NCBI RefSeq assembly: GCF_038025025.1
Contig: NW_027117339.1
Span: 682,001 to 746,000, forward strand
DNA length: 64,000 bases
Direction of reading: 5' to 3'
DNA from: Phyllosticta citribraziliensis
Lineage: Eukaryota
A program made the position numbers and the translations under genes. The notes beneath the pieces are model-generated. The model did not search any database and was not told where the DNA came from. It was given only the letters and a program-made list of their open reading frames with translations. Below are positions 1-28,785 of the stretch, piece after piece; position 1 is the stretch's first letter; each line of letters starts with the position of its first letter.

Positions 1-1281
1 AAACACCAAGTCTCCCGCCCCGCCGAGCACCAGCTTGTCGACGAAACCACGCTCCAGCGCGTGGATCTGCACGTCGGCGTAGATGCGCCCAAAGGCATCG
101 CGCCAGTCGGCGCATTCGGCTGGCAGCCGTCCGTTGGGATAGTAATGCGCGACCAGCGCATCCACGGCCGGTGCTGGGTAGTCTGCACGCAGCCGCTGCA
201 CGACTGATGCGAGCGAGTCTTCGGGCGGATGCCACGTTCCGTACAAAAAGTGCTCGTCGCGGCACTCGCCCATTAGCAGGGCCACGTTGCGCGATCGCAT
301 GCGCGCGCCAAACGCTCCGCTGTCAATCTCTGCGTACAGGTCGAACGGGACGAAGACGTCATCCAGGGTCGCGCGGAATTGGTGGCGCTTCATGGTGGAA
401 GCGGCTGCGAGCAGTTGGCGCGCCGGGATGGATTTGAGCTTGCCGATCTTGTCGACTGTGGGCAAAGACGAAGGGATATTGAGGTGCTCGAGGAGCTCGT
501 CGAATTGGGCTTGGGCCGACGAAAGCGTTTTGGGCTCCATTCCGGGTCCGTTGCTCCACATGACGCACCGCCGGATGACGGCCTTGGAGTCGGGCTGGTA
601 CAGGTCGTAGGCCAACTGCTTGAAGGCGCTGTGCGAGCCTGCTGAATACCCGCCAACCGTGATGTTTGAAGCATCTCCGGAAAAGTAGCTTATGTTCTTG
701 TAGGTCCATTCGAGTGCGAGTCGCTGGTCCCAGAATCCAAAGTTGCCGGTGGGCTCATCTTCTGCGGCAGACTGGAGTTCTCTGGAGCCGAGGAAACCAA
801 ACAGGTTGAGACGGTATGCTGGCGCGACGACAATGGCTCTAAACGGCGACTCTGAAAGCAATCCTACGGGGTTGATGTCATTGGGGCTTCCAACTTGCAG
901 GAAGCCGCCGTGAATGTAGAAGAAGACGGGCCATCCGTTGGCTGGAGGCTCGCCAGCAGGAATCCAAATATTGAGCTGGAGACAATCTTCATCCCACAGA
1001 GTTGAAGGTCCGTCACCAGTAGTTCCCATCAAGGTAGCCGACTGCGGACACACGCCAGTGCCGCCTGTGAATCTCCCGGGATTGCCTCTTGTCCCGTAGC
1101 GGTAGCAAGTAGGTAGCGGTCGCGGTAGTCGCCATCTGAATGGACCGAGAGGTGGCAGAGCGTACGGTATGCCCCCAAAGTAGTGGCACAAGTCTTCTCT
1201 GGAGCTCTTTTTAATCGTGGCGCCTTGGATGAAACCCCGCTGATCCAGGTCCCGCAGGCATGGCTCTCGAAACGTGGCCAT
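1..1281 (-). CDS. Carboxylesterase type B (para-nitrobenzyl esterase/cholinesterase-like); 3' end lies beyond the window
   Basis: Manual translation from ATG at 1281: MATFREPCL...FGGIPYALPPLGPFRWRLP...EDCLQLNIW...VFFYIHGGFLQVG...YRLNLFGFL...GNFGFWDQRLALEW...ITVGGYSAG. These are the COesterase motifs, including the GxSAG nucleophile elbow. Absent from the ORF track, presumably because it has no stop inside the window. Confidence 0.93.
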   Translation of the reverse strand, partial: MATFREPCLRDLDQRGFIQGATIKKSSREDLCHYFGGIPYALPPLGPFRWRLPRPLPTCYRYGTRGNPGRFTGGTGVCPQSATLMGTTGDGPSTLWDEDCLQLNIWIPAGEPPANGWPVFFYIHGGFLQVGSPNDINPVGLLSESPFRAIVVAPAYRLNLFGFLGSRELQSAAEDEPTGNFGFWDQRLALEWTYKNISYFSGDASNITVGGYSAGSHSAFKQLAYDLYQPDSKAVIRRCVMWSNGPGMEPKTLSSAQAQFDELLEHLNIPSSLPTVDKIGKLKSIPARQLLAAASTMKRHQFRATLDDVFVPFDLYAEIDSGAFGARMRSRNVALLMGECRDEHFLYGTWHPPEDSLASVVQRLRADYPAPAVDALVAHYYPNGRLPAECADWRDAFGRIYADVQIHALERGFVDKLVLGGAGDLVF

Positions 1282-2954
1282 GAACGGCGATAGTCGAGGA
1301 TGCAAGGTGCTGTGTAAAGTCCTGCAGGTTACACAACCTGAGCCCAATTCAGAACGTACAGCTGGGTTTGGACCTAGCCGGAAGCTAGTTTTGATGCCGC
1401 GTAGGAAACGCGCGGAAGATCGGAGGCGTGGAGGCGTAATGAAAGACGGAGGAGGATCAAAAGATGTCAATTGCGAAGAAGGTGGAGTTCTAAAGGCGCA
1501 TGCGGGTGATGACGAAGATTGTTGGATGGATCTCGAAAGACGAAGGTGGGAGGATAAGACGTCAACACCCAGGCCAGGACCTGGAAGTGGTGGCCGCTAA
1601 AAATGGCGGGGTAGGGGTCGGGGCCAGAGTTTGGCGGAGCAGCTCCCGGCGTCGCTATTTGAACCAGAATCACCTCACATCCCATGTCCATCCTCTGCTT
1701 CTTCATGCGCCAGCTCAACATCTCTCGGATGGAGAGCAAACACGTCGGAGCAATATCGAGAGCTGCAACGACGCACGAAAACGACGTGTACCGCGCTTTG
1801 CAACCCTCGCCTGAAGACACGACCACCAGACGCTCCCATGATCTTGCAATTTGATATCGGCCAGATGCACCTACCCGCCCCGCTGGTCATGGGTGCGGTT
1901 TACCTTTGCGCTTCCTCATGGATTTATCCGCGTGGAGGAAGAATCCTTCCTCCGGGCTTTCGGCGCCCATAGCTTTACGGATTTGCCTTCAGCTCGCATG
2001 TTGATGCATTCGCCGCCAGTGGGAGTGAGCCTCATGCTTTCGGGGCCCGCAGAGCTCATGTTCATCTCAGCTCGAGGCCAAACGTGAGCCTTCCACATCC
2101 TCCGACTGCCAGTCTCAAACGCGTGTTTGATCATCACGGCCGACCTCCAAAATTCGCCTGCACAGATATCTCCAGAGTGGGCGCAGTGATAGACTGGCCA
2201 GCAGAAAGATAAAGGGCCTGGGAGTGAGGAACCACCAATGAAAAGAGACGGAACCAGGAAAGGCAGGTGAAGCGCGCGGCAAAGACGACGCAACCAATGA
2301 CATGTCGACCTACGCAACATCGAACGTAGCAAGCGTGATCCGTGGAGTTTGCCAACATCGGGATCTCGAGAGTTTGATTCTGATTCGGGGGAAGAGGGGC
2401 CAGGGAGAAAGAGGCTTAGGCTCGCGACTGGGCTCCTTATTCATGTCGCAAGTCGCGCCCAGCAATTGCTGTCCTTGATGCCTCAGCTCACTTGCCTTTA
2501 GCAGCACGAAGCGTTTGTAGGATGAGGCTTGCCTTTCCACTACCACCTCCGGTTTCCTGATCTATTACGCGATGTCTTCTCTATCAACACATGCCCGCCC
2601 TTCCCTTGCGTACTCACAACCCTCGAACTGGCTCAATCGACAAGAAGAGGAAAATAAATATCATGCCCGGTCATCGTGGTGGTGGCGCGCGCGAGAACGC
2701 AGAGACCGATCAAGAATGGCATGGTCATCGTCAAAGCGAGCAAGAGCGAGGACTAGTCGGCACAAGGTCATTAGACAGCATTCCTCCTATCCGATTCGAC
2801 TCTACTCATTTATCTGCCTTGCCAATATTCTCAGCTGGTCGAGCCACTCTAAAGTGCTGTCCTGCTTTGGTCTCTTCTACCGCGACACCTCCTTTCTCAT
2901 GCCATTTATAAATCTGCGAAACCCTTACCACCACATACAGCGGTCCCCGAAAAC

Positions 2955-8458: not shown

Positions 8459-10491
8459 GGATACTGTCGTTAAATCGTCGGTCTGCGTGACAAAGCCTTC
8501 CAATGCTCACGAGGCTACGGACAAGACTTAAATGAGATAGATACCCCCACAGTGGGTCGCGAAGAAGTGTCAAGTCCGCGATTCAGCCGCGGTGGTAGGT
8601 GTATGAACCGAGTTGACAACCCACTGACAATGGGCTGATCCAGTTCATATCTATTCCTGATGGGACATTCGATGGCAGGTACCATCATTTGGGGTCGAGA
8701 AGAGTGCACCTCCATTGGTGGACGAAGACCTGAGAAGGAGAAGAGATCCGGTACAGCTGAAAGGCAGGCCGCACTGCGTACCTGCCAAAAATCTTCCCGG
8801 GAACACAGCCAGGCTGCGGTAGTGCGCCATCCTCGCCCCAGATCTGCAGCTGCCTGTGTGTGACCCATGACTTTCTGGCCGCTGCTGGCCATTGAGAGAG
8901 AAACGAGGGATGGGGTTGTCAGCCGGGAGGCGTGGCGCTCTCATGCCGCAACAATATCTTGGACATCCGCCCCCAAGAGAGGGATTTGTGGCCGGAGCAG
9001 AACAAGTCTTGCTGAGAACCTGCAGGTGACATGGCGGTGAAGGTAGACTGTTGCAAGCCTAGATTCCCGGAGGGCCGCTCAGCTGTCAATGGTGCTGTCA
9101 AAGGTCCGAAAGAAACGGTGCTTGAAGGACCTGTCGATGTGCGACTCCAACGCTGCTGTTATGTATCAGCAAGGCATGAGCAAGAACAGTTGCACTCATG
9201 AAGGCCGTTGACACTGCAGTCGGCGTGAAAGCCTGGCAGTTGGCCTGGAATCCGTGCACAGCAAATCGGACGCACTTGGCGGCCGAGGTCGCACCAACGA
9301 GGCCGCTCGAATCTGCTTGAACGGGTGAATTTAGGTGGATTCGCAAGAACATGTTGGTGGCATCACGTCTGACGTTGGGCGCTACGCGTGAACCAGCTTT
9401 TTGGGTCGAGCGGCGCCATCAATAGCTTGTTTCGAAGTTTGGACCGAGGCTCGACTCTTCAAAGCTGTAGCATGCGCAGCCTCAGTCAATTGGATTGCTC
9501 CCAACCTTCGCCTTTGTCACTGCAACGGCCATCTGCTTCTGCGTCCGTCTCTCCGTTTTCAATACTTGGAACGCTCACTGCGCGCCCTAATTCAGGGGTA
9601 TGAGCTCTCCAATCCACCGACAATCATTCACGACCCGACAGCCTTTGTCAGCAGACATTGCAATGGCAAGACGAAAATCAGTAACAGAAAGAGAATTACG
9701 ACCTATACAAGTGAGTACCGGAAATAAAACACACTTCGGGCGAGAAGTCTTCCGTGACCCGTCAAAAGTCGTGGCCGTAGCACACACAATCAAGGGTAAA
9801 GCTCTTAATTAGCTTGCCCCTCTTACCCATCACCTTCAATCCAGTCAATGAGACGAAAGATACTACCGTATAATGCTGTGAAAGTTACGCAAGTAATTTA
9901 TCGTCTTCTGGCTGCCTCTCAAGATCGAAATGGAGATTACTATTACCCGACTTTATCGTCTTGATTTAGGTTAAGCCCTAAACGAGGGCCAGGTAAAGCG
10001 GATGCGGACGTTGGGCTTGGCCCGAATGACGCACATCCATTGGGAGGAAAGGTATACAGTGCCGAGATTCGGTAGTTGAGTTGGAGTGGTAAGTGGTAGG
10101 GGCGAGTCAAGACTAAATCACCAGAAGGGTAACCTTTAGGCGAGTGCCGCGGACAAAATTACCACCAACGAGTCCCTTGGCTAACGGTGGGGGTAGTGCG
10201 GAAAGGAGCCACAAGGTGGTTACTGTGGACGGAAATTTACGTCAGTAGTATTTACTCGTCTTTGCCTTGTTATGCAGAGCTCAGTAACTTCTGTGTTGAC
10301 CCGTCTGTTCCACTCGCGTCTCATCCGGCACAACCCAGTCAACACTGCACGCTGTTGATGTGGAGCCGCACCCCGTTGACCAAGACCTTTCTCACACACA
10401 ACTTTGCGGAACTCTCCTGAACGCGTCGTTCCAGCACACAGCTCATTTTACACGGGCTATTGAACACCCTGGCTACCAGTTGACCAAGTCC

Positions 10492-11634
10492 TTACAGTCT
10501 CACGCCCAACTTCTCGCGAGCCTTCTCCAATGCCTTTTCATCAACAGCACCCACGCTGTCCGGTATCGCATAGCCCTTCCATGGCTCGCCCGCCTCATGA
10601 ACCAGCGCCTCGATCCCATCGCCGCTCGTAAAACTCCACACGCGAACAAACTTGCTTGCAAACTTCAATGCAAACGGCGTCCCGGCGGCAACGAAGATGG
10701 TCTCTCCTTCTCTCAGCACGCAGGGCGCCAGGTCCTCCACCGTCACCTCGAGCGCGCCCTCAACAACGGACAAGCAGTGGTGGACTGACGGAAACGTCAT
10801 CTTCTTCTCGAAGACGGACGCGCCGTAGCGCGAAGAGGACTCGATGCTCGAGATGGCAAACTTGCCGGCGCTCTGCTTGGTCGTGATGAACGGCCGCGAC
10901 AGCACGCCGCCCAGCAGCCACCTGGGGCCAGTGTTTGCCCTCAGGTAGTAGGGCAGGTTGCCGTCAGGCAGCTTCTCGTCGTCGGCGTCCCACTCGGAGA
11001 CGGCACACCCTTCATGGTGCGGGTGGAAGTGGACGTCGAACTGGCCCTTTGCCGCCATGACCTTGGGGATCAGGATCTCCTTGAGGTTGCGGTCGTCGAA
11101 CTCAGGATACAAGATGCCATCATACTTTTCAGCGACGTAGCGGAAGAATTCAAGCCATGATGCGGGCGTAATCAGACCGAAGGTCTCGGTTGTCGGGCCC
11201 AGCAGTTGCGGGTTGTGGATGGTGTGCTGCACTCTCTGATCAGCATTCGACTCTTCTGGTGTTGGCTGCCTCAACGGGTCACTTACCGGTGGCACGTAGC
11301 CGAAGTCTCCTGGACCCATGATCTTGCACTTGTCGCCATTCCACAGCTTGACCTGGCCCTTGGTCACAAGAAACACATCGTGCGCCTCTTCGTGGTGGTG
11401 GAAACCAGGGGCGTCCGCAAGGGCTCCGCCAGAAGTGAAGACGGCAATGGTGTCGTCGCTTTGAAGCGCCGATGTCATGATCCGAAACACACTCTTACTG
11501 CCCGGAATAGATATGACCTCGCCCTCATACTGTGGAATGACGTAGCTCTGCTTGTCATTGGGTGGTTGCTCCAGTCTCCGCAGCTCTTTTTGGTGCTCTT
11601 GCTTTTTTGGCAGCATGTTGACAATGTGATCCAT
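10492..11634 (-). CDS. Quercetin 2,3-dioxygenase-like bicupin
   Basis: FHHHEEAHDVFLVTKG (HxHxxxxD/E cupin metal motif), PGDFGYVPP..HNPQ, PYYLRANTGPRWLLGG and a second cupin domain. In-frame intron at 11227-11286. Confidence 0.85.
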   Translation of the reverse strand: MDHIVNMLPKKQEHQKELRRLEQPPNDKQSYVIPQYEGEVISIPGSKSVFRIMTSALQSDDTIAVFTSGGALADAPGFHHHEEAHDVFLVTKGQVKLWNGDKCKIMGPGDFGYVPPVSDPLRQPTPEESNADQRVQHTIHNPQLLGPTTETFGLITPASWLEFFRYVAEKYDGILYPEFDDRNLKEILIPKVMAAKGQFDVHFHPHHEGCAVSEWDADDEKLPDGNLPYYLRANTGPRWLLGGVLSRPFITTKQSAGKFAISSIESSSRYGASVFEKKMTFPSVHHCLSVVEGALEVTVEDLAPCVLREGETIFVAAGTPFALKFASKFVRVWSFTSGDGIEALVHEAGEPWKGYAIPDSVGAVDEKALEKAREKLGVRL

Positions 11635-11889
11635 GATATATAACGATCTCGACAAGTTTAATCGGTATCCTTTGCTTCTGATATGGCGGTTATAAGTAGA
11701 AAATCAAACCACAGCCAGAGACCAATTAGTAAAAAACACGGCATTCGGCACATTTCCAATAAACTTTCCCATGCATTCCCGTCGTAGGGCTGTCCGACAG
11801 TCCGTCCGTCGTCCGTCCCATCTGGGCTGCCTAGTCAAACCATCCCAAGAGCTCCCCACAACCCGGGCCGGCGCGCTGGCAACTCTGTT

Positions 11890-11900
11890 CGGCTTTTCCG
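11890..11900. promoter_or_regulatory. Putative Zn2Cys6 site CGG-CTTTT-CCG in the dioxygenase/esterase divergent promoter
   Basis: CGG-N5-CCG with an AT-rich spacer; a similar site lies at 16842. Confidence 0.4.
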
Positions 11901-12744
11901 AGCACGACTCCAAACCACCGATATGCCCAAACGGCTCCCTTCAGTTCCAAATCATGAGAAGACGCGCCCCGCCACCAGTTGCCTCATCGCAGGTTTTCAA
12001 CATGTAGCTGCGGACCTCCAAATACCGAGCTCCGAAAAGGCGCTCCTTTTTCCTGCTGCGGTCGCGGCAGACGCCCCCTTTCCATCGAGTGCTGCCGTGA
12101 TGCGATGCCGACGCGGCAGTCGTGATATCAGAAATGTGCGGCCTGCGGTGGCCGTGGCGCATGGAGTCCATCTGCCTACAATTTCAAAGCCCTCGGTTCC
12201 AATAGGCGACGTGGTTGCTTTTTTCCGAATTCTGAGAAGGGTAAATTGCCGCCTGCTTCGCTTTAGCCAGCTAGGTTTACAATGGCACTGGTTTATTCCT
12301 GGACACTCTTGGGATAGAGTTGCTAGATGTACGTCCTATCGCAGTGAATGGACGCAGGGTCTATCTGGTCAAGACGTCAGACATGTCAGAGCGCGGGGAC
12401 CAGCGGCGACATGGCCCACTTTTCTGCCACTTTCGTCCAAGGCAACTCAGATCCTCCGTCTGGCTTGGGATAAATATGGAACGCTTGCTTGCGTGCAAGT
12501 GGTGGTGGCAGTCTGCTATTCCACGTCGCTGACTGCCTTTGCCTACGTTTGATTTGAGAATATTTGTTTGTATATTTTGTGTATATTTTTTGTCGACTAA
12601 GATATATAGTCGCATACGACACGCTCTTTGACGGGCTTTGCAGAGAAAAGAGGCGAGTCTGATTCAAATCGACTTTGTTTAAACGCCTGTCTATCAAGTC
12701 CTACTCGGCTTCCAACACTTTCTACCGGTATCTTGCTCGCCAAC

Positions 12745-13824
12745 ATGCAGACCCCCTTCCGCTGCGTATACGCAGTTGTCGACGGCAGCATCATCCAAGC
12801 AGACGTCTACGTGCCATCGCCCGCGCCCAGCGCAAAGACAGCGCTGCCAGTAGGTCTGTCATCTTCCTGCCTCCCCTTTCCAAAAACCCTACCCCATAAA
12901 CAAGAACCCCAGCTAACACATCTCTTAGCCATCGGCATCCACGGCGGCGCTTTCATGCTTGGCCACAGCGGCATGGTCTCCCTTGACCAAATCGACGACT
13001 GCCTCTCACGTGGCTGGATCGTCGTATCCATCGACCATCGGCTCTGCCCGCAAGTATCGATCGTCGACGGGCCCATTACCGATGCGCGGACCGCGCTGGC
13101 GTGGGTGCACTCGACTTCCTCAACTTCGTCGCTGGAAGCAGAGCTGGCAGCCCACGGGCATGATACCGTCGCCGTCGACCGAGATGCTGTCGTCGCGTTT
13201 GGCACGTCGTCGGGCGGCACGCTGGCACTGGCGCTGGGTTGGGGCGTCCCTGAGAACGCTGGCGTCAAGGCGATTTTGGATTTGTACGGCGCGACGGCTT
13301 TTGCGGATCCATTTTGGACGCAACCGCTGCCGCACATTTCTCTCCCGCCACACGAGGAGAGCGAGAAGCGTATCAACCGCGTCTATGATGAAGTGCCCGT
13401 GCCGACGCAGGGCGGCGTGTCGTTGGAAGGACAGAGCCAGGAGCAAGGCGTAGTTGCTGTGGACGAAGAGCAGAGACAGCGCGACCTGATTCGCCGCGAG
13501 TTTACGTTCACCAACATTGGCCGCGGCACGCTGTTGGACGTGGCGTTCCCGTCGAAGCTGTGGGAGCAAATCGATGCGTCGTTGAATGTGTCGCCGTCCT
13601 TCCCGCCCACGTGCATTGTGCACGGCACCGAGGACGAGATGGTGCCAGATTATTTGAGCAAGAAGCTGTACGCCGAGTTGCAGCGGCACGGCGTGCGAAG
13701 CGAATTCATCGAGGTGCCGGGTGAGCGCCACACGTTTGTCGGCAAGATGGTTAAGGGGTCGCGAACGTGGGAGTTGCAGCGCAAGGGGTTCGACTTTTTG
13801 GAGGAAGTCATCAATCGCAGGTAA
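12745..13824 (+). CDS. Alpha/beta hydrolase (HSL-like esterase)
   Basis: IHGGAF oxyanion motif, SIDHRLCPQ, GTSSGG nucleophile elbow, HGTEDEMVP and a C-terminal His (GERHTF). In-frame intron at 12854-12928. Confidence 0.9.
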   Translation: MQTPFRCVYAVVDGSIIQADVYVPSPAPSAKTALPVGLSSSCLPFPKTLPHKQEPQLTHLLAIGIHGGAFMLGHSGMVSLDQIDDCLSRGWIVVSIDHRLCPQVSIVDGPITDARTALAWVHSTSSTSSLEAELAAHGHDTVAVDRDAVVAFGTSSGGTLALALGWGVPENAGVKAILDLYGATAFADPFWTQPLPHISLPPHEESEKRINRVYDEVPVPTQGGVSLEGQSQEQGVVAVDEEQRQRDLIRREFTFTNIGRGTLLDVAFPSKLWEQIDASLNVSPSFPPTCIVHGTEDEMVPDYLSKKLYAELQRHGVRSEFIEVPGERHTFVGKMVKGSRTWELQRKGFDFLEEVINRR

Positions 13825-13885
13825 AGACAGGCATGTCGATGAATACAAGAAAGCAAATCTGAACACAGCCAAGACCAGCTCAAGC

Positions 13886-16356
13886 TCAGCTGAAGCCGTT
13901 GAAACCGTTGCCGTTGTTGTCCCACATGTCTCGGAAGTCGAAGCTCCAGTCCCAGAGGCTGGCGTCGAGCGATTCCAGGCCCATGTGCGTCATCTCAAGG
14001 TCGCCGCCAGTCACCGCGGCATAAGGAACGTCCGTCGTATACGAAGTTGCCTTCGTGTTGGATCGCGGCGCTCCAACCCCGTTGCCACCAGGTGCAAATA
14101 AATGGGATATCTCGCTTCTGGACGTTCCATCAGGGTTCGGCGCTGTGGTATCGCTGCCGTTGTTGCGCTGGCGGATGGCGCCAAGCATTTGGCGGATGAT
14201 TTTGGCCGTCTTGCATGCGACGACCGATTCGGACATGATGTCGAGCATGGTCAGTGTTTGCTCGATGAGAGAAATGTAGTCGTGTTGCTGGTCTTGGGCT
14301 GGGCTGCTGTTAGTGTCCGTCATAGAACTTATGTCGTCGCCGTCACGGCCGCGGCCAGCGCGGAAGAGGATGATGGAGACGGCGAATGTAAGATATGTAA
14401 TGTTATACCACCTGGGAGGTGTTAGTGTATCCCTTAGAGGCCAGAGAAATGAAGCGATACCATGTCCTGAACCAGAACTGCCGACGGTAGGTCTCATAGA
14501 GGAGCTCAATGGTGCTAGCTGCAGCATCTGTGCACTTTTTGACCGCGTCAAGTAGACTTGGCTCTCGTTCGCTGTGTCTGGTCGCATACACAATGAAGGG
14601 TCTAAGGAGGAGCATCTTGACGTTATAGTAGCCTGTTTGTTGGATCAGCAATATAGAATGGACCATTATAACGCGGAAATTTACGTATTTGTAGGACAAG
14701 TCTTTGGTAGAAAGCCCACGGAGGATCTCCAAGTTGGCAATGTCGGTCCACGTCAGAGGTGAATTGAGGCCGTATAGCGTCAGGCAAGCGGGCGCACCAA
14801 GCGTCCATTTCGAGCTCTATGTTCAGCCTTCGGTGTGTTAGTACTAGATTTGTAGAAAAGGGATCACCATCAACTTACGCGCTCTGGAGCTTCTGACCCA
14901 GCGATAGGCGATGCAGGTAGACTTTGACAGAAATCGCGCGCATAATACGCGACAACCCAATCATTCCAGGGATTATGTCAATCTCTGAGCCATCAATGGA
15001 CGGAGGTTGGCGATTGTGGTAGTCTTCCATGCCCAAGCTGTCGGGACGGCCAAGCGAAAAGCTTAGTTCGATCTCGAGCGTATAGAAGCCCCACCATGTT
15101 TTCGACGCTTCAATGGCCTGTGGTTGTGACTCGGCAGGCCTCCTGTTGGCACCGATAGACAGCAGTATTCGAGAAGCCATTCCAAGATAGGTGTATGCAA
15201 GATTGGGGTTGATTTCGTTCTGACAGACTTTGGCCATGAACATGTATGCCTGGGCGGCTTCGAGGTCATTTGCGGATCCGGGGAAACCTAAAGCGTGCTG
15301 CGCCTTTTCGAACAACATGCGGCTCCACTCGAACCTGCCCATGCCATTAATCTTTTCCTCGGTCCATGTCCGGATGAGGGCGCCGAGAGAAACGAGACTA
15401 AAGTACAAGGCAATGAAGCTCCGCGGCTGGTTCTGAAAGCGGCCTTGCCAAAGGTCATCACATCGGCCATAGAAGCTTTCCTTGTCGAGGATTGGATGTA
15501 TGTAGTGGAGCTTGTTGAAGTACGTCTCGAGAAATACGTAGGATTGAGGGAAGAAAAATTGGCAGTCGATGCCGTCTTCAAACCCCTGGGCGTCCTTGAA
15601 CTGTGTTCTAAAGACATCGTTGTGGAATGTGCTGACCAATGACTGCTTCTGTGAGCTGGCTTGAGGTCTATCTTGACTTTCGGCGTCGCTGCAGCCGTAC
15701 TCTTCGCGAAGACGTCCGATGAAAGCCACCGAAGACGTGTGGCCGTGGAATTCGACATTGCGAGTATGCGGATTCACTTCGACGATTTCAGTCCCGTCCT
15801 CAGGCGTGGCGTCATCGGTTCCGTTTTGGCTCTCTGTAACCGCAGTCCCGTGGTGACCAGGGCCAGGGGAAGATGTGTCCTGAATACTTCGGGCAACCGA
15901 AGACCTGGAAGCTTCGATATCCTGAGGCGTAGTCTCTGCGGGAACTACTGTTCCCTGAGACGAGGAAGCTTTTGGTACGGCTCGGAGCCTGGCATTCTCA
16001 GCCTGCAGCCTTATGACCTTTTGCTCCAGCTCTTGCAAGGCGCTGCATCAACAAATTCAGTAAGCAGCGGCAACCGAAGCTTGATCCGCGGGATTCCCGA
16101 CCTTGCTGGACTTCCTCTCTCCACTGCGGAAGAAACTCGGTAGACGCAACTCAGACCTCTCCCTGGTCAAATATCAACACCTATTTCGCGTCCGTTTGAA
16201 TGAGGAGAGGGCAATACGTTTACAGTTGCTACAAGGGGAGACTCCATCGCATTTATATTTTTTCGATCGACAGAGGCCGCAAGCTTGAATAGCCCGAGGC
16301 CGCCGTGGCGGTCTTGGACTGCTGGCTGCAGCAGTTTCTTGAGGTGAAGGAAGCAT
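13886..16356 (-). CDS. Zn(II)2Cys6 transcription factor with a fungal-specific TF (MHR) domain
   Basis: ACGLCRSKKYKCDGVSPCSNCK, a coiled coil, EFHGHTSS, YFNKLHYIHPILDK and WWGFYTLEIELSFSLGRP; multi-exon. Confidence 0.92.
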
Positions 16357-16841
16357 TGCTGAAGAAGTTTTCGTCCTCAATTGACGGGAAAAGGCAGGTT
16401 GCACAATGGCGAGTCGGACGTAGTACTCGAGAAAACGATCGCGCCGTCTTCAAGTCGTCCAGTAGGATCAAAGAGCCGTTAGCCCCGTGGGTTGCGCAAG
16501 GAGTTGGTAGCATGGGGTCCAGATTTCCCCGCAACGCAACGGAGGTTGGCGGCGCACAGACCGAGGCTTGGTAGCAAAAGTCATGGCTCACACAAGCTCC
16601 CAATCACCACACTCGACGCTCGAATGCTCCCTGTCAGTCGTCAGTACAGGGTGTGAACGCTTCCCAATAATCACCGATTACAGTGTATGAGCAGGAATGC
16701 CCCGAATGCTCCGTGACGCGCGAGATTGATTCTCAATTCTGGTTGTGTGCGCCACGACTTTTGTGACCGGGCCTGGGACGCTGGCGGAGTGCGGGGGACC
16801 GACCAAGCAATGCATCAGCCGGACCTCAGGGATTCGACCGC

Positions 16842-16852
16842 CGGATATTCCG
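16842..16852. promoter_or_regulatory. Putative Zn2Cys6 site CGG-ATATT-CCG in the TF/monooxygenase divergent promoter
   Basis: CGG-N5-CCG followed by A, as at 11890. Confidence 0.4.
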
Positions 16853-17167
16853 AATTGTGGCTGACGATTTTCTGGGGAAACGGTCATGTTTGGTAGCGCG
16901 TGCTCGTCTGCTGTCAGGCTTGAGGACCATAATTCTGACCCCGAAGTTTGCATTACCGCGATGTGGGCAGCCGATCACCCCCGAAGAGACGATTCTTAAC
17001 GCCGACACAGTCGGCTTTGCCGGCGAACACGAACCATCCAAATGTGTCTCCTATTCCGCAGATGGCCAAGAAGCTTTTGAACTTGCACACCGTTTGTTCT
17101 CTCGCGTCATCTTGGAAAGCGTTGCATACTCGCATTGATTTTAGAGCAACAGACTAGAGCCGTAGCC

Positions 17168-18676
17168 ATGGGACCCGCAAGCGAGAACCTCGAAATCATC
17201 GTCGTCGGCGCAGGCTTGGGGGGATTAGCTGCATCGATTGAATGCGCGCTATCCGGACATCATGTGACGGTGTTGGAGACAGCGCCAGAGCTGGCAGAGG
17301 TGCAGTTGCCTGCATCCAGAAACGCAAGATTGCTGACGAGTTCATAGATCGGAGCCGGGCTCCAAATAACGCCAAATTCATCCAGACTGCTAAAGTCATG
17401 GGGCGTGTACGACAAGCTGGCTGACATGGCAGTTGAGCCCAAGAAGCTGTTTGTACACCGGTACTCCGGCGAGGTACTTTCAAAAGAGGATGACTTTGAT
17501 CTGCAAATGAACCGCAAATACGGGGCACCTTTCGTTGACATGCACCGCGGAGACGTGCAGAAAGCCCTAGCTGCACGAGCTAAAGAGCTTGGGGTTGTGC
17601 TGAAGTTGGGACAGCGAGTTGACGCACTCGACTTGGACTCTACTCGAGCCAACATCACTACTCAAGACGGCAAGGAGCATCACTGTGACCTCGTGGTGGC
17701 GGCCGACGGGCTTTGGTCAAAGTGCCGAGAATGCTTCCTGGGACGAAAAGATCCCCCATTGGCGACAGGCGATCTGGCTTACCGAATCGTCCTGAGACTG
17801 GACCAGATTGAAGATCAGGACCTGCGCGATTGGATAACCAACCCGACGGTACACTTCTGGATCGGGGAAAACTCCCACGTAGTGTCGTATAGCATGAAAG
17901 GCGGGCAAATGTACAACATCGTGTTGCTCGTACCAGACGACCTGCCGGAGTCGGTTGCAAAACAAGCTGGCTCAACCGAAGAGATGAAGAAGGTGTTCAA
18001 GGGCTGGGATCCGATGTGGGTCAAACCCTTGATTGAAATTTCTCTGCTCACAGTTTCCAGATTGACGCGGTTCCTTGATTGCGTGGACAAGGTGGACAAA
18101 TGGAAGCTGATGCACAGGGAAGAAATGGAATCGTGGATCAGCCCAAAGGGAAACCTGGTCTTCATTGGAGACGCATGCCATCCAATGCTGCCATATCTTG
18201 CCCAGGGCGCCAATTCGGCACTAGAGGATGGAGCTGTCCTCGGGAAGGTCCTGAAGGGCGTTGAATCCAGGAGCTCGGTATATCAAGCACTCGTGGTCTT
18301 CGAACAGCTGCGCAAGTCGCGTGGAGAGGCCATTGTGCGAGAGACGTTTAAACAGGCAAGTCGGATTCCGCTCGCATCTTGGACAAAGCTGACGGGATTG
18401 CAGCGAAGAGACTTCCACATGCCGGATGGCCCCGAACAGCAAGCCCGGGACGAGCTTTTCCTCTCAAAGCTGGGCAAGCAGATTGATTGCGCGTTTCCAA
18501 GTCGATGGTTTGTAAGCTCCTATGCCCCTTGTCAATCGTGTACTGATGCGAGAAGGCAATGTCCTCAAGTGCAACCATGGCTGTATGGCTACGATGCGGG
18601 AAAAGAAGTGGAGTCCGTGATGCAAACGTATGCGGTGGTGCAGGAGACGCTCCAGAATGGCGGTCTCAAGATCTAG
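17168..18676 (+). CDS. FAD-dependent monooxygenase (group A, salicylate hydroxylase-like); 5 exons
   Basis: IVVGAGLGGL, EIGAGLQITPN, DLVVAADGLWS and IGDACHPMLPYLAQGANSALEDG. Introns at 17300-17347, 18016-18060, 18356-18403 (GC-AG) and 18508-18555. Confidence 0.93.
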
Positions 18677-19034
18677 GACGCGGGCTTTGGACTGTCAGCT
18701 TAAAGGGTTGCTGTGTAGCGTTCAGCGAGAGGTGTTGGACAGATGAGTTTCATAGAAATGAAGGCGTAGCCGAACAAGTGACAAACATAGCCTGAACAGT
18801 AGTCTGGGTTTGTTGGTGTTGAGATCAAACGGCGCGTGCCAGCCACCGACCCAAACGGGGGCTTGTGCCATGCGCACGGACCATAGCGTCATCCGTCACC
18901 ACGGCGGCGGCAGGTCCCAAGGTCCCGTTCGCCGCTCCACTGCTGCCGCCCAGTCCACCTACCTACTCCGCTATCGTCAACCCTACCATCGCCTCCTCCC
19001 AACCGCCTCCCTCTCGCAATTCACCTCGACCGCC

Positions 19035-22947: not shown

Positions 22948-25449
22948 TCAAACGCTAATATGCTCCGAGTAAACCGGACCCCCCTTGTCATCCTCCACAT
23001 GCTTCCTCGGCGTCGCGGTCCCATTCAACTCCTCCACAAACTGCACCAACCCAACATCCTCCTGGGCCCTGGCCAGCATCTCAGTATCCTCGACGCTAGT
23101 ATTGCTGCCAAAGACCTGATCCATCTCCTCGAGGGTCTTGCCCTTGGTCTCGGGCATGAAGAAGTAGATGAAGACGCCGCCGAGGGCGGCCCAGCAGGCG
23201 AAGAAGATGTACATGCCCCAGCCGATGCTGTCGAGCATGCGCGGCGCGATGAGCGCGATGACGAAGTTGTTCATCCAGTTGGAGCTCACGCCGATGCTGC
23301 TACCCTTCGCGCGGATGCTGAGCGGGAAGATTTCCGCGATTAGGATCCAGCTGCCGGGGCCCCAGGATGCCGCGTAGTTGACCACGTAGATCCAGACGAA
23401 GACTGCGTTTGTGGGTTAGTGAGAGGATGGAGGATAGGGAGGGAGAGGCGCACCGACGGCTGCCCAGCCTGCTGCTTTGTGTGCGAGCCAGTCTTGCCCG
23501 CATGTTGCGATGATTACGCCAACGATGACCTGGCATATGGTCATGCCAACGGAACCGGTTATCATCATGGGCTTCCGGCCCAGCTTGTCAATGTAGAGAA
23601 TGGCCGGGACGGTAGTTACGGTGTTGAGTATGCCGATGACGCCCGTTGCAAGCATCGAAGAGCTGCTGCTGGTCAACCCCAGCGATTGGAAGATGGTTGA
23701 GGCACTATAAATATTTATTAGCAACGCATCGACTCAATCCAAAACCCCCGAACTCACTAGAAGAGGATCGAATCAATTCATGAGAGGTAGTCAGTAACGT
23801 GTATGATCATCTAGAGGTTCAAAAACTAACCTGTCCACTGCTGAAAAAACTTTGTGGAGGTTAGCAGAAGAACTGACCAGGAAGAGAGAGAAAGGGGGAC
23901 ACGGTGGGAGCCAAAAGAGATATCACTCCTGAGACTGCGACTGAAACCAAGGAGCATTCGCTCACTACTGCAGACGAAGCCTGGGAGCTGTCGGTGCTGC
24001 CATGGTTGCGCGTAGGGAGCATTTTTTCTTCGCCACCGAATTGGCGCACGGTGGATCAATTTTGACACCCACTGTGCGAGGAAGGAGCAAGGAGCGTCAT
24101 CGCACTTACCATGACCATGCCCGCCAACGTCACTCTCTTGAACGCATCCCGGCTCTTGAACAGACTCGCATACTGAACAATCTCGCGGCCCCACTCGCTG
24201 TCCGCCTTCATGTTTGGGAAGCGCTGCTTGTATATCCGATCCTCGAATTCGGCATCGGCCTTGATCTCAAGGAACTCGGCACGCACAAGTGGATGGTCCT
24301 CCGAAAGGTTGCGCAGGTAGGAGATCGACTTGATGGCTTGGGCGTCTTTGCCCTTTGACACCAAGAAACGAGGCGAGAAAGGCATGAACCACACGCCCAA
24401 AGCAAGGCAGACGGCCGGCACACCCTGCACGATCATGGGAGTGCGCCAGGACATTGAACTTTGGCCTGCACCAGTGCCGCCAATGTAGTTTGTGCCATAC
24501 TGGAGGGACGCCGAAGGTCAGTGTTCGGCCTCGCCCCTGAACCACACTCCCCTGTATTCTTGGACTTACAGAGATCCAGTAAGCGCACATCAAGCCAATG
24601 TTGGTGTTCAAATGTTGCATCGAAATGATGAAGCCGCGAAGTTCGGGGGGCGCCAACTCGGCGTTGTACAGGGGGCTGTGGTTCGTGTCAGCCGTCAAAC
24701 CCACACATGCCTTTTCGTTCAACAGTAACGCAACGCCCGAGGACCAAACACTTACCCTACGGCAGAGAGAGTTCCAACACCGATACCAGTGAAGAATCTA
24801 CCAGCGTACAGATATCCAGGGGCACTTGCTCCAGCGCACAGGTAAGATCCCAGGATCACCCACAGAGCACCCCAGAACATGGTGTACTTGCGCGAGAAGA
24901 CTTGAGCGAAGACTCCGCTCGTCAGAGCGCCAGCCCAGCCGCCCAGTTGGAGGATTGAGGTCAACCATCCCAGGTTCGTCGAGTTGTTGGCAACGTTGGG
25001 GAACTGATATTTGGCTTTGTTAGCTCGGGGCCTCGACGCAGAAATTGAGGCCGTACCTGTTCGATGAAGGAGTGCATCACGGCTGCTTGGCCGATCACAC
25101 CTTGTTGGTAACCATAGAGGAGACCACCAAATCTGTGAAATGTGAGCATGTGATTCGAATAGAGGCGGCTCGATGCTGATTTTCGTTTCTCCCAGCATAG
25201 CAGGCGCAGGAAGAAACGAAACCTCCTGGCAATGTATCCACGCCGGGAGCATTCGTTCGCTGCTATGGTTACGCCATTGGAGCTTTCCCATTGAGCCTCA
25301 GGGGAGCTGGAATCGACTCACGATGCAAAAGCAGAGATCAGCAAAAGCTTCTTGTTTTGCCAAATGGCCTTGTAGATGTTGTCTGGGGTCTCCGACGTCT
25401 CGCTCCGCAATTTGGCAGTGATGCCCTGCAGGGTCTGCGTTGGCGCCAT
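22948..25449 (-). CDS. MFS sugar porter (many exons, including 19- and 22-nt microexons); one acceptor is non-canonical, so the gene may be disabled
   Basis: FGGLLYGYQQG, GRFFTGIGVG, LYNAELAPPELRG, FFQQWTG|IDSILFY|AS, SWGPGSWILIAEIFPLSIRAKG and PETKGKTLEEMD. Confidence 0.9.
23930..24027 (-). repeat. ~33-bp minisatellite, 3 degenerate units, inside a sugar-transporter intron
   Basis: Minus strand: aaaaatGCTCCctacgcgcaaccatggcagc / acaGCTCCcaggcttcgtctgcagtagtg / cgaatGCTCCttgg; 32-33 nt period. Confidence 0.7.
25238..25307 (-). repeat. ~33-bp minisatellite, 2 or more units, inside intron 1 of the sugar transporter
   Basis: Minus strand: aaaGCTCCaatggcgtaaccatagcagcgaacgaatGCTCCcggcg; 33-nt period. 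Confidence 0.7.
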
Positions 25450-26315
25450 TTTACAGCGCGTGGGAAGTGTTGAAAGAAAGTGGACCTCGAAACTGATTGT
25501 TGGGTCAAGCTGGTCGGTTGAGCTCCTGAAGGCCTGGAGACGAGGACACAGCAGCGAGAACTCGCGAAAGACTTAAAGCCCTTGCACTTCCCCCAGATGC
25601 GGGGCCCCACGCCCAGCTTGGTGGCCTCAGTGGAGCAGTATGATACTCTCCGCGTTTGCTTGTCCCACTGTAGTTGCGGAGCAGGTTTCTCGCAATGGTT
25701 GTCTCCGCGCATCATAGCGTGACATTTTTCTTTCTCCATTCTGGCCAGCCTTGCGGTAACCCCCGTAACGAGGTCCCCGGGCCCTGGATTGCAGCGGGTG
25801 CATGGGTCCCCTGCTGGGAGAGGCCAGCGAAAGGGTCCTCCATGGTTGGCTTTATTGCCTTGACACCTGCGCCGAAATGGACGCGGCAACTCAAGCGCGA
25901 TTTTGTTATGAATCAGAAAATGAGATTCTTCAGGCCATTGACGATTGGACTCGATGACGCAGAGAAGGACGAAGTAGAAACAGAATGGGAAACCCATTGA
26001 AGTTCGGACACGCTCATAACAGGAAACCCGAGACCTCGACCGGATCTAGGGCGGCAATGAGTTTGCAGATCCAGGGCCATGTGCCGCATGAGATCGGGAC
26101 AATGTCCTGCTCTTCAATGTTTGACAATCTGTCGAATTTCTGCTGGTGTTTTAATTGCACATGACGGAGTAGGAGACACTTTCTGGACGGGCACGTGGGT
26201 CGTGGTCGTTGATGTTCCAGCTTCGGGCGTGGCACAGAGGGTGTCGAAAGGAATGAGGCCTCGCGGGTCTAGCCAGCAACAGACCACGGCTAACTGCTCG
26301 CATCTGTAATCGCGG

Positions 26316-26422
26316 ACGTTTGCTCCTTAGGTGTCGCTGTAACAGTAGATGAGTGCTCCCTAGGCGTCGCTGTGAAAGCAGATGAACGCTCCCTGGGCGC
26401 AACAATGGCAGGGCAGATGAAT
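26316..26422 (+). repeat. ~33-bp minisatellite, 3 units, upstream of the Zn2Cys6 TF
   Basis: acgtttgctccttaggtgtcgctgtaacagtag / atgagtgctccctaggcgtcgctgtgaaagcag / atgaacgctccctgggcgcaacaatggcagggcag / atgaat. Confidence 0.85.
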
Positions 26423-26571
26423 TTGTGGTTGCCGGTCAAGTGACTCGGCTAAATTGATGGATGGATGCGTCGCCCTCACTCGCCGTACGTCGTCCCCGCA
26501 TCAGCGCCGTCTCCCCAAGCCTGGGGAAGCACAAGCATGTTCGATCTCCCCCTCATTGTCGACATTCGACG

Positions 26572-28535
26572 ATGACAACAACAGAAACCCGGGCGGAGCG
26601 CCGGCGGCGCGTTCGAAAACCCCGGGGCCGAGGCTTGAGAACACGTACCGGTTGGTGAGCCTCCACCAACCAGCCTTGTGGAATGCCGGCACCTGCTAAC
26701 GGTTGCCGGAAGCACCACTTGCCGCCGTAGACACCTGAAATGCGACGAGGTGACGCCCCTGTGCGGGCCATGTGCAAAAAGCAACCATGAGTGCGTGTAC
26801 GCCAATGCCAGTCGAGATGAGGTACGAGCAAGCCAGGTAGCACAGGAATCTGGGGCCCCTCCGAGGCCTTCAGACTTTTCAGAGCAGAGCTTCTCGCTCG
26901 CTGACAGTTTGGAACTCAATTCGGCAATCTCACCTGAGGGCGTCTTTCACGCACAATATGACGATGCCGACGCGGCGACATCCACTTTACCGGTCACCAC
27001 TACTGCCGCCGACGATTCGACTGCCAGTCCCGGTGACTCTTCCTATACCGGAGTCAGTGGCGCCACTGCACGGTGGTTTGGCTTGTTGCTCGATGATGCG
27101 GCTCTGGGCCTTGAGATCGACGCTGGAAATGCCTTTCAACTGGCTGCTGGGGCTGGCGACGCGCTGTTCCGACCAACAAACCCCCTAGATCCTGACAGTG
27201 CTCCTCACTTCAGCCCAGTACAGAGTAGCCATGTAAACGAGCATGCTCTGTGGCAGTGTCCCGAAAGACTACAGCTGCTGCCAAACCAATGCTTAGTGTT
27301 TGAAAACTTTGTGCGCAGAGTGGCGTCCTTCATGGACTTGTTCGATGCGGAGCGCCACTTTTCTGTCCTGGTCCCTCGTCTCGCAGTAGGTTCTGCCCAA
27401 TACATGATCAGAATTCCGAAAAGATGCACATGAAACTGACACGTGTAGATGTACAATGCGGGACTCATGAATGCTCTTCTGGCGCTTTCTGCTCGCCACC
27501 TATCACTAAATCCGTCCGTGGCCCTGAACGCTCCTCATGATCGGAACGGAGCACTCAAGTATTACTATGAGACTTTGCATTATGTGCAAAAGGCGATGCA
27601 GTTTGACTCTTACAAGACATCCCTGGAGCTTTTGGCGACAGCGTTGATCGTTTCAACGTATGAGATGTTTGATGGCTCCCGCAAAGATTGGGAGAGGCAC
27701 CTCAAGGGAGTCTTCTGGATCCAACGCTCCCAAGAAATCAACGGCGAAAGCGGAGGGCTTAGAGCCGCTATCTGGATGGCGTGGCTGACGCAGGATACCT
27801 GGGCCGCGTTTCGAGAGAACCGAAGAGCGTTCACGATTTTCCGTCCAACCAGAGCACTCAAAGACTTGAACGAGTACGAGCTGGCATGTCGCTCAGTTTT
27901 TCTCTTTACCAAGGCGGTCAACTACTGCTCGAAAGAGGAGGTGGAGCTGGAACCTAGCAGCATAGCCGCCAGAGCCGCCAAGGCGGATGGTTTGCTGGCC
28001 TTGCTGCAAGAGTGGCAGTCCTTTCTGACGCTCAAGTTTGCCCCCTTGCCGATAAACGACAGCGTCGATTCCGACATTTTCCAGCCAATCTGGATACACC
28101 CGCCAGCATTCGGTAAGAATCGGACCCAGAAATGAGCTTCGATACGGAGTACTGACTGCGCGAAGCGGTGGCCATCCAACTCCATCACGCCGCCCGGATA
28201 CTGATCCACTTGAATCGCCCCTCGGTCGGTGGCTTGGGTGGGTACATGCGGACGCAGAAGGAGGTTGCTGCCTCTGCTGATACCATAGCCGGGATCGCGA
28301 TGCCCCTAAATGATGACGGCGCTTCGCTCATCTCTTCGCAATGTCTGTTCATAGGTAAATCCACCTCTGCTAGGACGATTTGGGGCAAGCTGACACACCC
28401 GCAGCTGGAATGTGCACGACAGATGCGAGAAAGCGGGATGCCATTCTAGTTCTCATCGATGCGTGCCGGCAGCGGACGGGCTGGCCAATCAAACCTTTGG
28501 GAGAAGAGTTGCAGGAGCTCTGGAGTAGATGTTGA
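26572..28535 (+). CDS. Zn(II)2Cys6 transcription factor with a Fungal_trans_2-type domain
   Basis: GLRTRTGC|TTCRRRHLKCDEVTPLCGPCAKSNHEC, LMNALLALSARHL, YEMFDGSRKDWERHLKG and RQRTGWP. An alternative in-frame ATG lies at 26461. Confidence 0.92.
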
Positions 28536-28785
28536 AAAAAAAAGCCCGGGAAGCCTCGAGGCTTGGTGAAGAGGATCGCCGCAGAAGCATCAAATATCTA
28601 CGATCTCCCCGTAGATTCATCCCTGCCATTCGACGCCTGTCTTACGGGTCGTGGCAATGAGTTTGCTTGATAGACGTCATAGCATATAGACACTGGAAGA
28701 TACGGAGAGGACTCTTACGCATTAGAAGGTAGATAGAAGCATTTGATCAAATACCTATGGGTTTCGGTTCTTTCATACACAGCCT

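Follow-up and report, generated by a model that had tools for sequence, protein, structure and literature searches.

Flavonols rank among the most plentiful compounds of plant defence and signalling, and plant-dwelling fungi must cope with them. The chemistry of quercetin breakdown in fungi has been known for sixty years and leads, through a quercetinase and an esterase, to phenolic acids, and the genes known so far are those of secreted quercetinases and of one cytoplasmic quercetinase. Here we analyse a 64-kb stretch of the genome of the citrus-associated fungus Phyllosticta citribraziliensis (hereafter, the window, in whose coordinates all positions are given), in which four genes encode a bicupin dioxygenase, a serine esterase, a Zn2Cys6 transcription factor and a flavin adenine dinucleotide (FAD)-dependent monooxygenase. 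Judging from their sequences and surroundings, these genes appear to form a credible, largely undescribed flavonol catabolic cluster, although a changed metal ligand in the bicupin and partial precedents, namely, VdQase and a supplementary table on Aspergillus terreus, temper both its certainty and its novelty.

According to a 2021 review (PMC8120277), the known fungal quercetinases are secreted copper enzymes (A. japonicus, Penicillium olsonii and Sclerotinia SsQDO) and one cytoplasmic enzyme, VdQase of Verticillium dahliae (VDAG_02532). VdQase activity was described in mycelial extracts and rises in response to rutin and quercetin; its knock-out mutant is less pathogenic and uses less rutin (PMC4462102). 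VdQase resembles the bicupin of the window in being a cupin protein without a signal peptide and with ~23% identity to the A. japonicus quercetinase, but has been described without an esterase, a monooxygenase or a promoter motif, and from extracts rather than as a pure enzyme. An intracellular location, which the first-pass annotation of this DNA had set against the secreted Aspergillus quercetinase, is therefore not new, a cytoplasmic quercetinase having already been published (PMC4462102; PMC8120277). The published VdQase gene model (1047 residues) also includes transcription factor domains (PMC4462102), suggesting that a neighbouring regulator gene has been fused in. Another overlong bicupin model, apparently fused to the neighbouring transcription factor gene in the same way, is that of A. 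pseudonomiae (P0375, 922 aa), and such models may have hidden the cluster in earlier analyses.

The rutin pathway of A. flavus includes a depside esterase acting on 2-protocatechuoylphloroglucinol carboxylate (Child et al., 1963, cited in PMC4462102); its sequence was not found in the literature examined, and a 2026 preprint refers to depside esterases as 'not well characterized'. No fungal flavonol cluster with an esterase is described in the literature searched, a body of work from which most subscription journals were absent, and quercetin goes unmentioned in a 2025 review of A. niger aromatic metabolism and in the 2026 FAMeDB paper.

A partly similar locus of A. terreus appears in the supplement (Tables S4/S5) of a study in which DUF3500 was proposed to cleave the ring in a new 1,2,3,5-tetrahydroxybenzene pathway (Martins et al., 2023; PMC10832562), where it represents one of three 'gallate-related' cluster types. 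In this locus, a quercetinase-like gene is followed by genes for a Zn2Cys6 factor (ATEG_08219b_new), a monooxygenase (ATEG_08220), a major facilitator superfamily (MFS) transporter (ATEG_08221_new) and a DUF3500 protein (ATEG_08221-22_new). The main text of the study mentions neither quercetin nor cupin, the annotation being confined to Table S5. In length, ATEG_08219a_new (1041 bp) agrees with the A. terreus bicupin P0013/P0014, and ATEG_08220 (1311 bp, 436 codons) with P0349 from another A. terreus strain (436 aa); the forward quantitative PCR primer for ATEG_08220 reads as LTRFLSY, and the TRFL motif with matching flanks was located in P0349. Thus, ATEG_08219a to 08222 share with the window a quercetinase-like gene, a Zn2Cys6 regulator and an orthologous monooxygenase, but include MFS and DUF3500 genes and no adjacent esterase, whereas the window contains the esterase and no DUF3500 gene. 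As for A. flavus 'cluster 32' (PMC7663156), which is expressed during maize infection and likewise contains genes for a quercetin dioxygenase (AFLA_096260), a salicylate hydroxylase and a Zn2Cys6 protein (AFLA_096370), it is a broad predicted secondary-metabolite region with aflatrem and NPP1 genes, and a relation to the genes of the window could not be established.

Structure and families of the four genes

Stop-to-stop open reading frames (ORFs) and Pfam families agree with the four genes that the first-pass annotation had placed within 10492-18676, as well as with their arrangement in two divergent pairs, bicupin/esterase and regulator/monooxygenase (Table 1). The esterase and regulator genes converge, with stop codons ~60 nt apart. 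Exon structures were drawn from transcript contigs, and the spliced frames were checked as open. Among 20 sequencing runs holding part of the stretch, four, all of them contig sets, were examined: X1 and X2 from the same species (0 mismatches), X4 from a related species and X13, an RNA-seq library labelled plant metagenome with contigs ~90-96% alike to the window. Contig depth in these sets cannot rank expression, and uncovered stretches (12339-12615 in X1; 14832-16493 in X2) are without meaning. All four genes are covered by spliced contigs in each of the four runs, including the plant-sample library. Contigs extend the bicupin leader to 11968-12301, and the regulator and monooxygenase transcripts overlap within 16357-17167.

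Table 1. Positions of the cluster genes, their promoter regions and the CGG-N5-CCG sites in the window
Feature	Positions	Strand	Basis or remark
Bicupin dioxygenase gene, quercetinase family	10492-11616	-	ORF; Cupin_2 twice
Bicupin intron, 60 nt, in-frame	11227-11286	-	GT..AG prediction; joint 11226>11287 in X13
Divergent bicupin/esterase promoter region	11617-12744		Partly transcribed as bicupin leader
CGG-N5-CCG (CGGCTTTTCCG)	11890-11900		~275 nt upstream of bicupin ATG
Alpha/beta-hydrolase serine esterase gene, HSL/BD-FAE type	12745-13824	+	Pfam BD-FAE, Abhydrolase_3
Zn2Cys6 transcription factor gene	13886-16356	-	Pfam Zn_clus, Fungal_trans
Divergent regulator/monooxygenase promoter and leader region	16357-17167		Transcript contigs
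CGG-N5-CCG (CGGATATTCCG)	16842-16852		326 nt upstream of monooxygenase ATG
CGG-N5-CCG (CGGCTTTGCCG)	17012-17022		156 nt upstream of monooxygenase ATG, inside transcribed leader
Group A flavoprotein monooxygenase gene, MNX1/PhyA type	17168-18676	+	Pfam FAD_binding_3

The bicupin coding sequence (10495-11616; exons 11287-11616 and 10495-11226, stop codon 10492-10494, second in-frame ATG at 11634) yields a spliced product of 354 aa, letter-for-letter identical to P. citribraziliensis P0397, annotated as 'cupin domain protein'. Its intron sits three codons before the last metal-binding His; a 51-nt alternative was rejected, the 60-nt form being the one seen in RNA. All six PDB sequences matching the product at E <= 0.001 are quercetinases, with E values of 1.6e-25 for YxaG, 6e-17 over the full length for the A. 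japonicus enzyme and 2e-8 for Streptomyces QueD. An AlphaFold (AF2) model built with 40 homologues as input (predicted local distance difference test, pLDDT, 94.2) displays the two-cupin fold of quercetinases. The top Foldseek matches of this model are 2h0v, 1y3t and 1gqh/1juh, with template modelling (TM) scores of 0.78-0.87 (0.87 to YxaG and 0.78-0.81 to the A. japonicus enzyme), whereas the next fold class, oxalate decarboxylases, reaches at most 0.51. Sequence and fold thus bear out the quercetinase-like nature ascribed to the protein in the first-pass annotation.

Within the family, YxaG/QdoI of Bacillus subtilis (PDB 1Y3T, 2H0V) is the best match in both sequence and fold but is a bacterial enzyme with metal sites in both cupins. 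The A. japonicus enzyme (PDB 1JUH, 1GQG; also those of A. flavus and P. olsonii) shares with the window bicupin a metal site confined to the N-terminal cupin, the C-terminal cupin of the bicupin being likewise devoid of metal ligands. Three of the four A. japonicus ligands (His66, His68, Glu73 and His112) have direct counterparts: H73, H75 and H114 of the bicupin align to the three histidines and are invariant in 40 homologues, within a family motif HxHx3HD...H. Unlike the A. japonicus quercetinase, which is a secreted glycoprotein, the bicupin (~21% identical) has Asp in place of Glu and lacks a signal peptide of the secreted type: its N-terminus is hydrophilic by inspection, and neither the bicupin nor the esterase, in both of which the first-pass annotation had seen no signal peptide, shows a hydrophobic N-terminal stretch (sequence inspection, no predictor). 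Taken together, sequence and modelled fold assign the bicupin to the quercetinase family, albeit with a substitution at one of the defining residues.

The monooxygenase gene comprises five exons (17168-17297, 17346-18015, 18061-18352, 18401-18506 and 18555-18676), and all four introns are spliced in each of the four runs. The spliced frame is open and encodes 439 aa, 93% identical to P. capitalensis P0241. The best PDB matches are 8GSM, 8X38 and 8R2T; P0241 gives full-length alignments with 8GSM ('4-hydroxybenzoate decarboxylase', 5.6e-119), 8X38 (PcMNX1, 1.1e-79) and 8R2T (GsMNX1, 3.3e-76), leaving 3-hydroxybenzoate 6-hydroxylase far behind (~1e-52). A FAD_binding_3 domain with GxGxxG and the full-length similarity place the protein in the MNX1/PhyA branch of Group A enzymes, together with GsMNX1, PcMNX1, 8GSM and A. 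niger PhyA (E 1e-76 to 1e-119). Oxidative decarboxylation by MNX1 enzymes is documented for 4-hydroxybenzoate, protocatechuate, vanillate and gallate (PMC13559804), and the nearest solved relatives are 4-hydroxybenzoate, vanillate and protocatechuate 1-hydroxylases (PMC13559804), in line with the decarboxylating hydroxybenzoate type suggested in the first-pass annotation.

The esterase gene, with one intron (12854-12928), encodes a spliced product of 334 aa, letter-for-letter identical to P. citribraziliensis P0121, annotated as 'Alpha/Beta hydrolase protein'. Matches to PF07859 and PF20434 (E 1e-17 and 6e-14), the HGG motif, the GxSxG nucleophile motif (G128-T-S130-S-G) and the catalytic triad assign it to the HSL-like/BD-FAE type, and H41-G42-G43 of the oxyanion motif, GTSSGG (with Ser130), Asp272 and His304 are invariant in 40 homologues. 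The AF2 model (pLDDT 93) resembles only generic HSL-like carboxylesterases, with TM scores of at most 0.65 and 15-20% identity.

The regulator is encoded by six exons (16217-16356, 16102-16161, 14878-16042, 14684-14826, 14459-14631 and 13889-14409), and an additional intron (16630-16680) lies in the 5' leader; the five coding introns and the leader intron all show clean GT..AG (CT..AC) joints in contigs. The spliced frame is open, and the product contains the six cysteines of the Zn2Cys6 signature (CX2CX6CX5CX2CX6C) along with the middle domain of fungal-specific transcription factors (Zn_clus, 1.3e-6; Fungal_trans, 1.9e-14).

At two short segments, 16562-16595 and 14346-14385 (~34 and 40 nt), contig depth is raised several-fold and loose contig ends abound in each of the four runs. 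They are apparently common to other transcripts; neither recurs in the window (16-mer check) or matches Rfam, in which no match at E <= 0.1 was found for 10000-19000.

Conservation of the neighbourhood and the promoter motif

Three homology searches returned mostly Pezizomycotina proteins, 45-68% identical outside the genus. In Phyllosticta, the accessions of the bicupin, esterase and monooxygenase run in sequence (e.g. KAK7542167/68 and KAK8198145..148), indicating that the four-gene block is conserved in the genus. Consecutive bicupin and esterase locus tags are found in Sarocladium strictum (NLU13_8931/8932), Pestalotiopsis fici (PFICI_03915/03914), Verruconis gallopava (PV09_08765/08766), Lomentospora prolificans (jhhlp_007848/007849) and Sporothrix bragantina (…007268/007267), and both genes are also encoded on a single small contig of Bipolaris oryzae (25 kb) and of Saccharata proteae (61 kb). 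The monooxygenase gene is found at a distance of two to five genes from that of the bicupin in A. terreus (HFD88_007210/007212), A. melleus (N8T08_005366/005368), Penicillium angulare (N7456_010235/010240) and Phyllosticta. The genes are thus kept together across three classes of Pezizomycotina, and the lack of co-conservation, which the first-pass annotation had named as grounds for abandoning the cluster, was not observed.

We further searched 43 metagenome contigs encoding a bicupin relative with the proteins of the window. A divergent esterase is located 440-890 bp upstream of the bicupin in 18 of the 22 loci whose upstream flank measures 1.7 kb or more, or in 14 of 18 after the removal of four duplicate pairs. 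Of the 43 loci, 12 contain a regulator homologue (26-54% identical and in most cases of full length) and three the monooxygenase (L011, L013 and L036). One locus, L029, reproduces the layout of the window, including the convergent regulator, whereas in L036 the order is esterase, bicupin, regulator, monooxygenase and DUF3500. The arrangement is best read as variable, with the bicupin and esterase in many Sordariomycetes and Dothideomycetes, and the bicupin, regulator, monooxygenase and DUF3500 in Aspergillus-like loci. Among 24 bacterial and archaeal loci with distant bicupin relatives (21-29% identity over long matches), no esterase, monooxygenase or DUF3500 gene was detected within 6 kb (E <= 1e-5) and, therefore, bacteria lend no independent support.

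Several metagenome loci carry further genes. A D-2-hydroxyacid dehydrogenase gene adjoins the regulator in L002/L031, L021 and L043 (L010 is also named with this group), and an MFS transporter of the sugar type (71-83% alike) lies between the regulator and the esterase or beside the esterase in L021, L043 and L010; both may be cluster members in some lineages. In L013, a glutathione S-transferase gene (14362-15114 of that contig) is located between the regulator and the monooxygenase.

Decarboxylative hydroxylation of 2,4,6-trihydroxybenzoate should give 1,2,3,5-tetrahydroxybenzene. A scan for DUF3500 (Pfam on six large loci and tblastn over all 43) placed such a gene beside the cluster in exactly the three monooxygenase-bearing loci; together with A. 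terreus, these loci display the linkage of the ATEG_08220-type pathway. Conversion of 2,4,6-trihydroxybenzoate to 1,2,3,5-tetrahydroxybenzene has been reported, and a mutant of the gallate monooxygenase (AN4576) still grows on 2,4,6-trihydroxybenzoate (PMC10832562), so that another monooxygenase must act there. Because the A-ring of the flavonol depside ends up as 2,4,6-trihydroxybenzoate, the DUF3500 neighbourhood fits the third step of the first-pass annotation, a decarboxylative hydroxylation. From this neighbourhood, the monooxygenase of the window may act on 2,4,6-trihydroxybenzoate, a suggestion to which we assign slightly less than even weight. No ring-cleavage gene, DUF3500 included, was found in the whole window (Pfam of long ORFs and homology search).

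The relationship among monooxygenases was assessed in a tree of 73 rows, from which 48 of the 120 listed matches had been dropped (10 outside 400-500 aa and 38 near-duplicates). The possibility that bicupin-linked monooxygenases form a clade of their own was rejected, as the tree follows taxonomy and represents one widespread orthogroup; the 'linked' label requires 12 changes compared to 14.0 in shuffles, with 44 of 500 shuffles being as low.

As the first-pass annotation had stated, both divergent promoters contain CGG-N5-CCG sites (Table 1). The words at 17012 and 11890 agree at 10 of 11 letters, and the site at 16842 resembles, on the other strand, a cross-species consensus CGG-(G/A)AA(A/T)T(T/C)-CCG. 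The motif is not enriched window-wide (17 occurrences versus 20.6 +/- 4.5 expected; 80 of 100 shuffles with at least 17), and three sites in the 1.94 kb of promoter versus 14 in the other 62 kb amount to a mild excess (Poisson p ~0.01, uncorrected). Comparison across loci is more telling. In 15 non-redundant bicupin-esterase intergenic regions (14 loci and the window), the motif occurs in 12 versus 2.8 +/- 1.5 expected, a number reached in none of 300 dinucleotide-preserving shuffles, although kinship among the loci somewhat inflates the count; the regions lacking it are those of L007, L010 and L037. Among 39 CGG/CCG spacings compared, N5, which had been named beforehand, shows the largest excess, with several others mildly raised, and its density is 17 in 8,991 bp of intergenic sequence (1.89 per kb) versus 49 in 124,097 bp elsewhere in the same loci (0.39 per kb). 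Duplicates aside, the intergenic regions have few 12-mers in common, so that the motif is conspicuous on a background of diverged sequence.

The spacers resemble one another and are rich in A/T (CGGGAATTCCG, CGGAAATTCCG and CGGAATTTCCG, with CGGAAAAGCCG in the window), and the motif is often paired, 33-50 bp apart, ~170-450 nt from the bicupin start. In L011 and L013, sites are found before the bicupin and between the bicupin and the regulator. Furthermore, the motif lies 257 nt (L036) and 278 nt (L013) before the monooxygenase, the L036 word being identical to that at 11890 of the window. The motif might be bound by the cluster's own Zn2Cys6 protein.

Proposed pathway and alternatives

We are highly confident that the genes constitute a co-regulated catabolic unit. 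With less assurance, but as the reading that we favour, we regard it as an intracellular catabolic cluster for flavonol aglycones (such as quercetin and kaempferol) that has been retained, in varying form, across filamentous ascomycetes. From the gene structures, transcription, family membership, catalytic residues, conserved neighbourhood and conserved motif, we infer the substrates, products, inducer and motif-binding protein of the following scheme. The cytoplasmic VdQase-type bicupin would use O2 to open the flavonol C-ring, yielding CO and a depside, which the divergently encoded serine esterase would split into a B-ring acid (protocatechuate in the case of quercetin) and 2,4,6-trihydroxybenzoate. 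The monooxygenase would oxidatively decarboxylate the latter to 1,2,3,5-tetrahydroxybenzene, and might also turn B-ring 4-hydroxybenzoates into hydroquinones or hydroxyquinol. 1,2,3,5-Tetrahydroxybenzene would then enter the DUF3500 central pathway, with genes presumably located elsewhere in this genome and adjacent to the cluster in other fungi. Finally, the Zn2Cys6 factor would drive all four genes, including its own, via the CGG-N5-CCG sites; the epithet 'self-regulated' used in the first-pass annotation likewise derives from the sites in the regulator's own promoter and is to be taken as provisional. The dedicated pathway envisaged in that annotation holds insofar as the candidate enzymes and the regulator are supported, but it is not complete, the ring-cleavage gene being absent from the 64 kb.

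Several observations weigh against this scheme. The identity of the bicupin to proven quercetinases is ~20-23%, and the Glu that serves as carboxylate metal ligand and catalytic base in A. japonicus (Glu73; Glu69 and Glu241 in YxaG) is replaced by Asp80, preceded by an invariant His79 and itself invariant in 40 of 40 homologues; Asp, too, offers a carboxylate, on a side chain shorter by one carbon. P0110, from Verticillium, shares 54% identity with the bicupin of the window, and VdQase itself is only a possible member of the same family. For the esterase, a characterised close relative was not found, solved structures and the protein atlas returning generic names only, and it is the neighbourhood alone that points to a substrate. 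This neighbourhood has exceptions: the esterase is missing from four of the 22 metagenome loci (L011, L013, L024 and L032), and linkage is lacking for the best esterase homologue in A. terreus, P. angulare and A. nanangensis and for the monooxygenase in Verruconis, Saccharata and Thelonectria. Two of the three CGG-N5-CCG sites of the window are transcribed, that at 11890 within the long bicupin leader and that at 17012 within the monooxygenase leader. X1 and X2 contigs traverse the bicupin intron unspliced, and contigs also traverse the canonical 75-nt esterase intron, probably unspliced, although those covering the esterase are merged with the convergent regulator transcript and thus ambiguous in strand. 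Enzymatic activity and induction of the cluster genes by flavonols are offered here as predictions from sequence. On balance, flavonols are probably the substrate of the cluster, and the conserved position of the esterase beside the bicupin makes it a candidate depside esterase, with the arguments on the two sides in about equal measure.

The two introns deserve a remark of their own. The bicupin (60 nt) and the esterase (75 nt) each carry a single in-frame, stop-free intron adjoining a catalytic motif, located before the last metal-binding His in the former and directly before the HGG oxyanion motif in the latter. The introns of the regulator and the monooxygenase are spliced in the same X1 and X2 runs in which those of the bicupin and esterase stay. 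The readthrough could be regulated intron retention, or else antisense or unprocessed RNA.

Among the alternatives, degradation of another aromatic ester (digallate, gallotannin fragments or lichen and plant depsides) fares best, although we consider it unlikely. The esterase would then free gallate or a hydroxybenzoate, to be decarboxylated by the monooxygenase to 1,2,3,5-tetrahydroxybenzene for DUF3500, and the bicupin would have a non-flavonol substrate. The linkage of DUF3500 and monooxygenase in relatives is compatible with such a route, as are the acceptance of gallate by PhyA-type enzymes (PMC12388069; PMC13559804), the Asp where quercetinases have Glu and an esterase fold that points to generic carboxylesterases rather than to one substrate. 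In A. terreus, moreover, the bicupin, regulator and monooxygenase genes rise modestly on gallate, by 2-4 log2 units (PMC10832562), a point in favour of a link to gallate or tannin. However, they reach only 15, 8.7 and 6.7 transcripts per million (TPM) versus 1706 for the DUF3500 gene and 224 for another monooxygenase gene, ATEG_08831 (PMC10832562), suggesting that gallate is not their main inducer. Furthermore, this route leaves the bicupin, the most constant member of the cluster, without a role, and the only solved relatives of the bicupin are quercetinases.

It is less probable still that the cluster chiefly detoxifies antifungal flavonols in the cell by means of the bicupin and esterase, with the monooxygenase as a loosely coupled scavenger of hydroxybenzoates. 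A part in counter-defence has been ascribed to VdQase and SsQDO (PMC4462102; PMC8120277), the genes of a relative are expressed in RNA from a plant sample, and the monooxygenase is unlinked in several species and follows taxonomy in its tree, but in several fungi the cluster is physically linked to the DUF3500 pathway as well as to MFS transporter genes, which speaks for carbon use; the two roles are mutually compatible. Tailoring of a secondary metabolite, or a chance assembly of neighbours without joint function, is very improbable: some esterase homologues are automatically named, for instance, 'polyketide synthase', and the motif is not above chance within the window, but no synthase domain was found among the 129 long ORFs of the window, and the neighbourhood and promoter motif are conserved across fungal classes.

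Under the flavonol reading, the four-gene unit with its conserved operator provides direct candidates for the depside esterase, the 2,4,6-trihydroxybenzoate monooxygenase and the regulator, would aid the annotation of hundreds of fungal genomes that name the proteins only 'cupin domain protein' or 'alpha/beta hydrolase', and would offer enzymes for flavonoid bioconversion. More tentatively, as a joint proposition that we hold to be somewhat doubtful, the locus might supply at once the missing genes of the fungal rutin/quercetin pathway of the 1960s, namely, the first depside esterase gene and a 2,4,6-trihydroxybenzoate 1-monooxygenase tying the A-rings to the DUF3500 pathway, along with a flavonol-responsive Zn2Cys6 regulator, its CGG-N5-CCG operator conserved across Pezizomycotina, and a quercetinase with a 3-His-1-Asp site. 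Such a site would be new among characterised quercetinases, and in-frame intron retention in the dioxygenase and esterase could then act as an additional off-switch.

Other genes in the window

A type-B carboxylesterase gene (COesterase, E 6e-52; 1-1596, minus strand) runs off the start of the window 9 kb from the cluster, and other loci showed no link between the two. A second small metabolic cluster may be present at 22951-31198, with genes for an MFS sugar-type transporter (22951-25297, minus strand), a further Zn2Cys6 factor with Fungal_trans_2 (26639-28132, plus strand), a class II aldolase (28789-29750, minus strand) and a short-chain dehydrogenase (30309-31198, plus strand). It is followed by a very large gene or gene pair (32253-41930, plus strand) with DUF6606, DUF3638 and DUF3645 domains, in ORFs of 1045, 1532 and 470 aa. 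Some 25 kb away from the cluster, two minus-strand genes (42780-44326 and 45275-46783) encode a true fumarylacetoacetase, with N- and C-terminal FAA hydrolase domains, and a Cupin_1 bicupin. A CGG-N5-CCG word with an A/T-rich spacer (CGGATATGCCG) is located at 44619, ~300 nt upstream of the fumarylacetoacetase gene.

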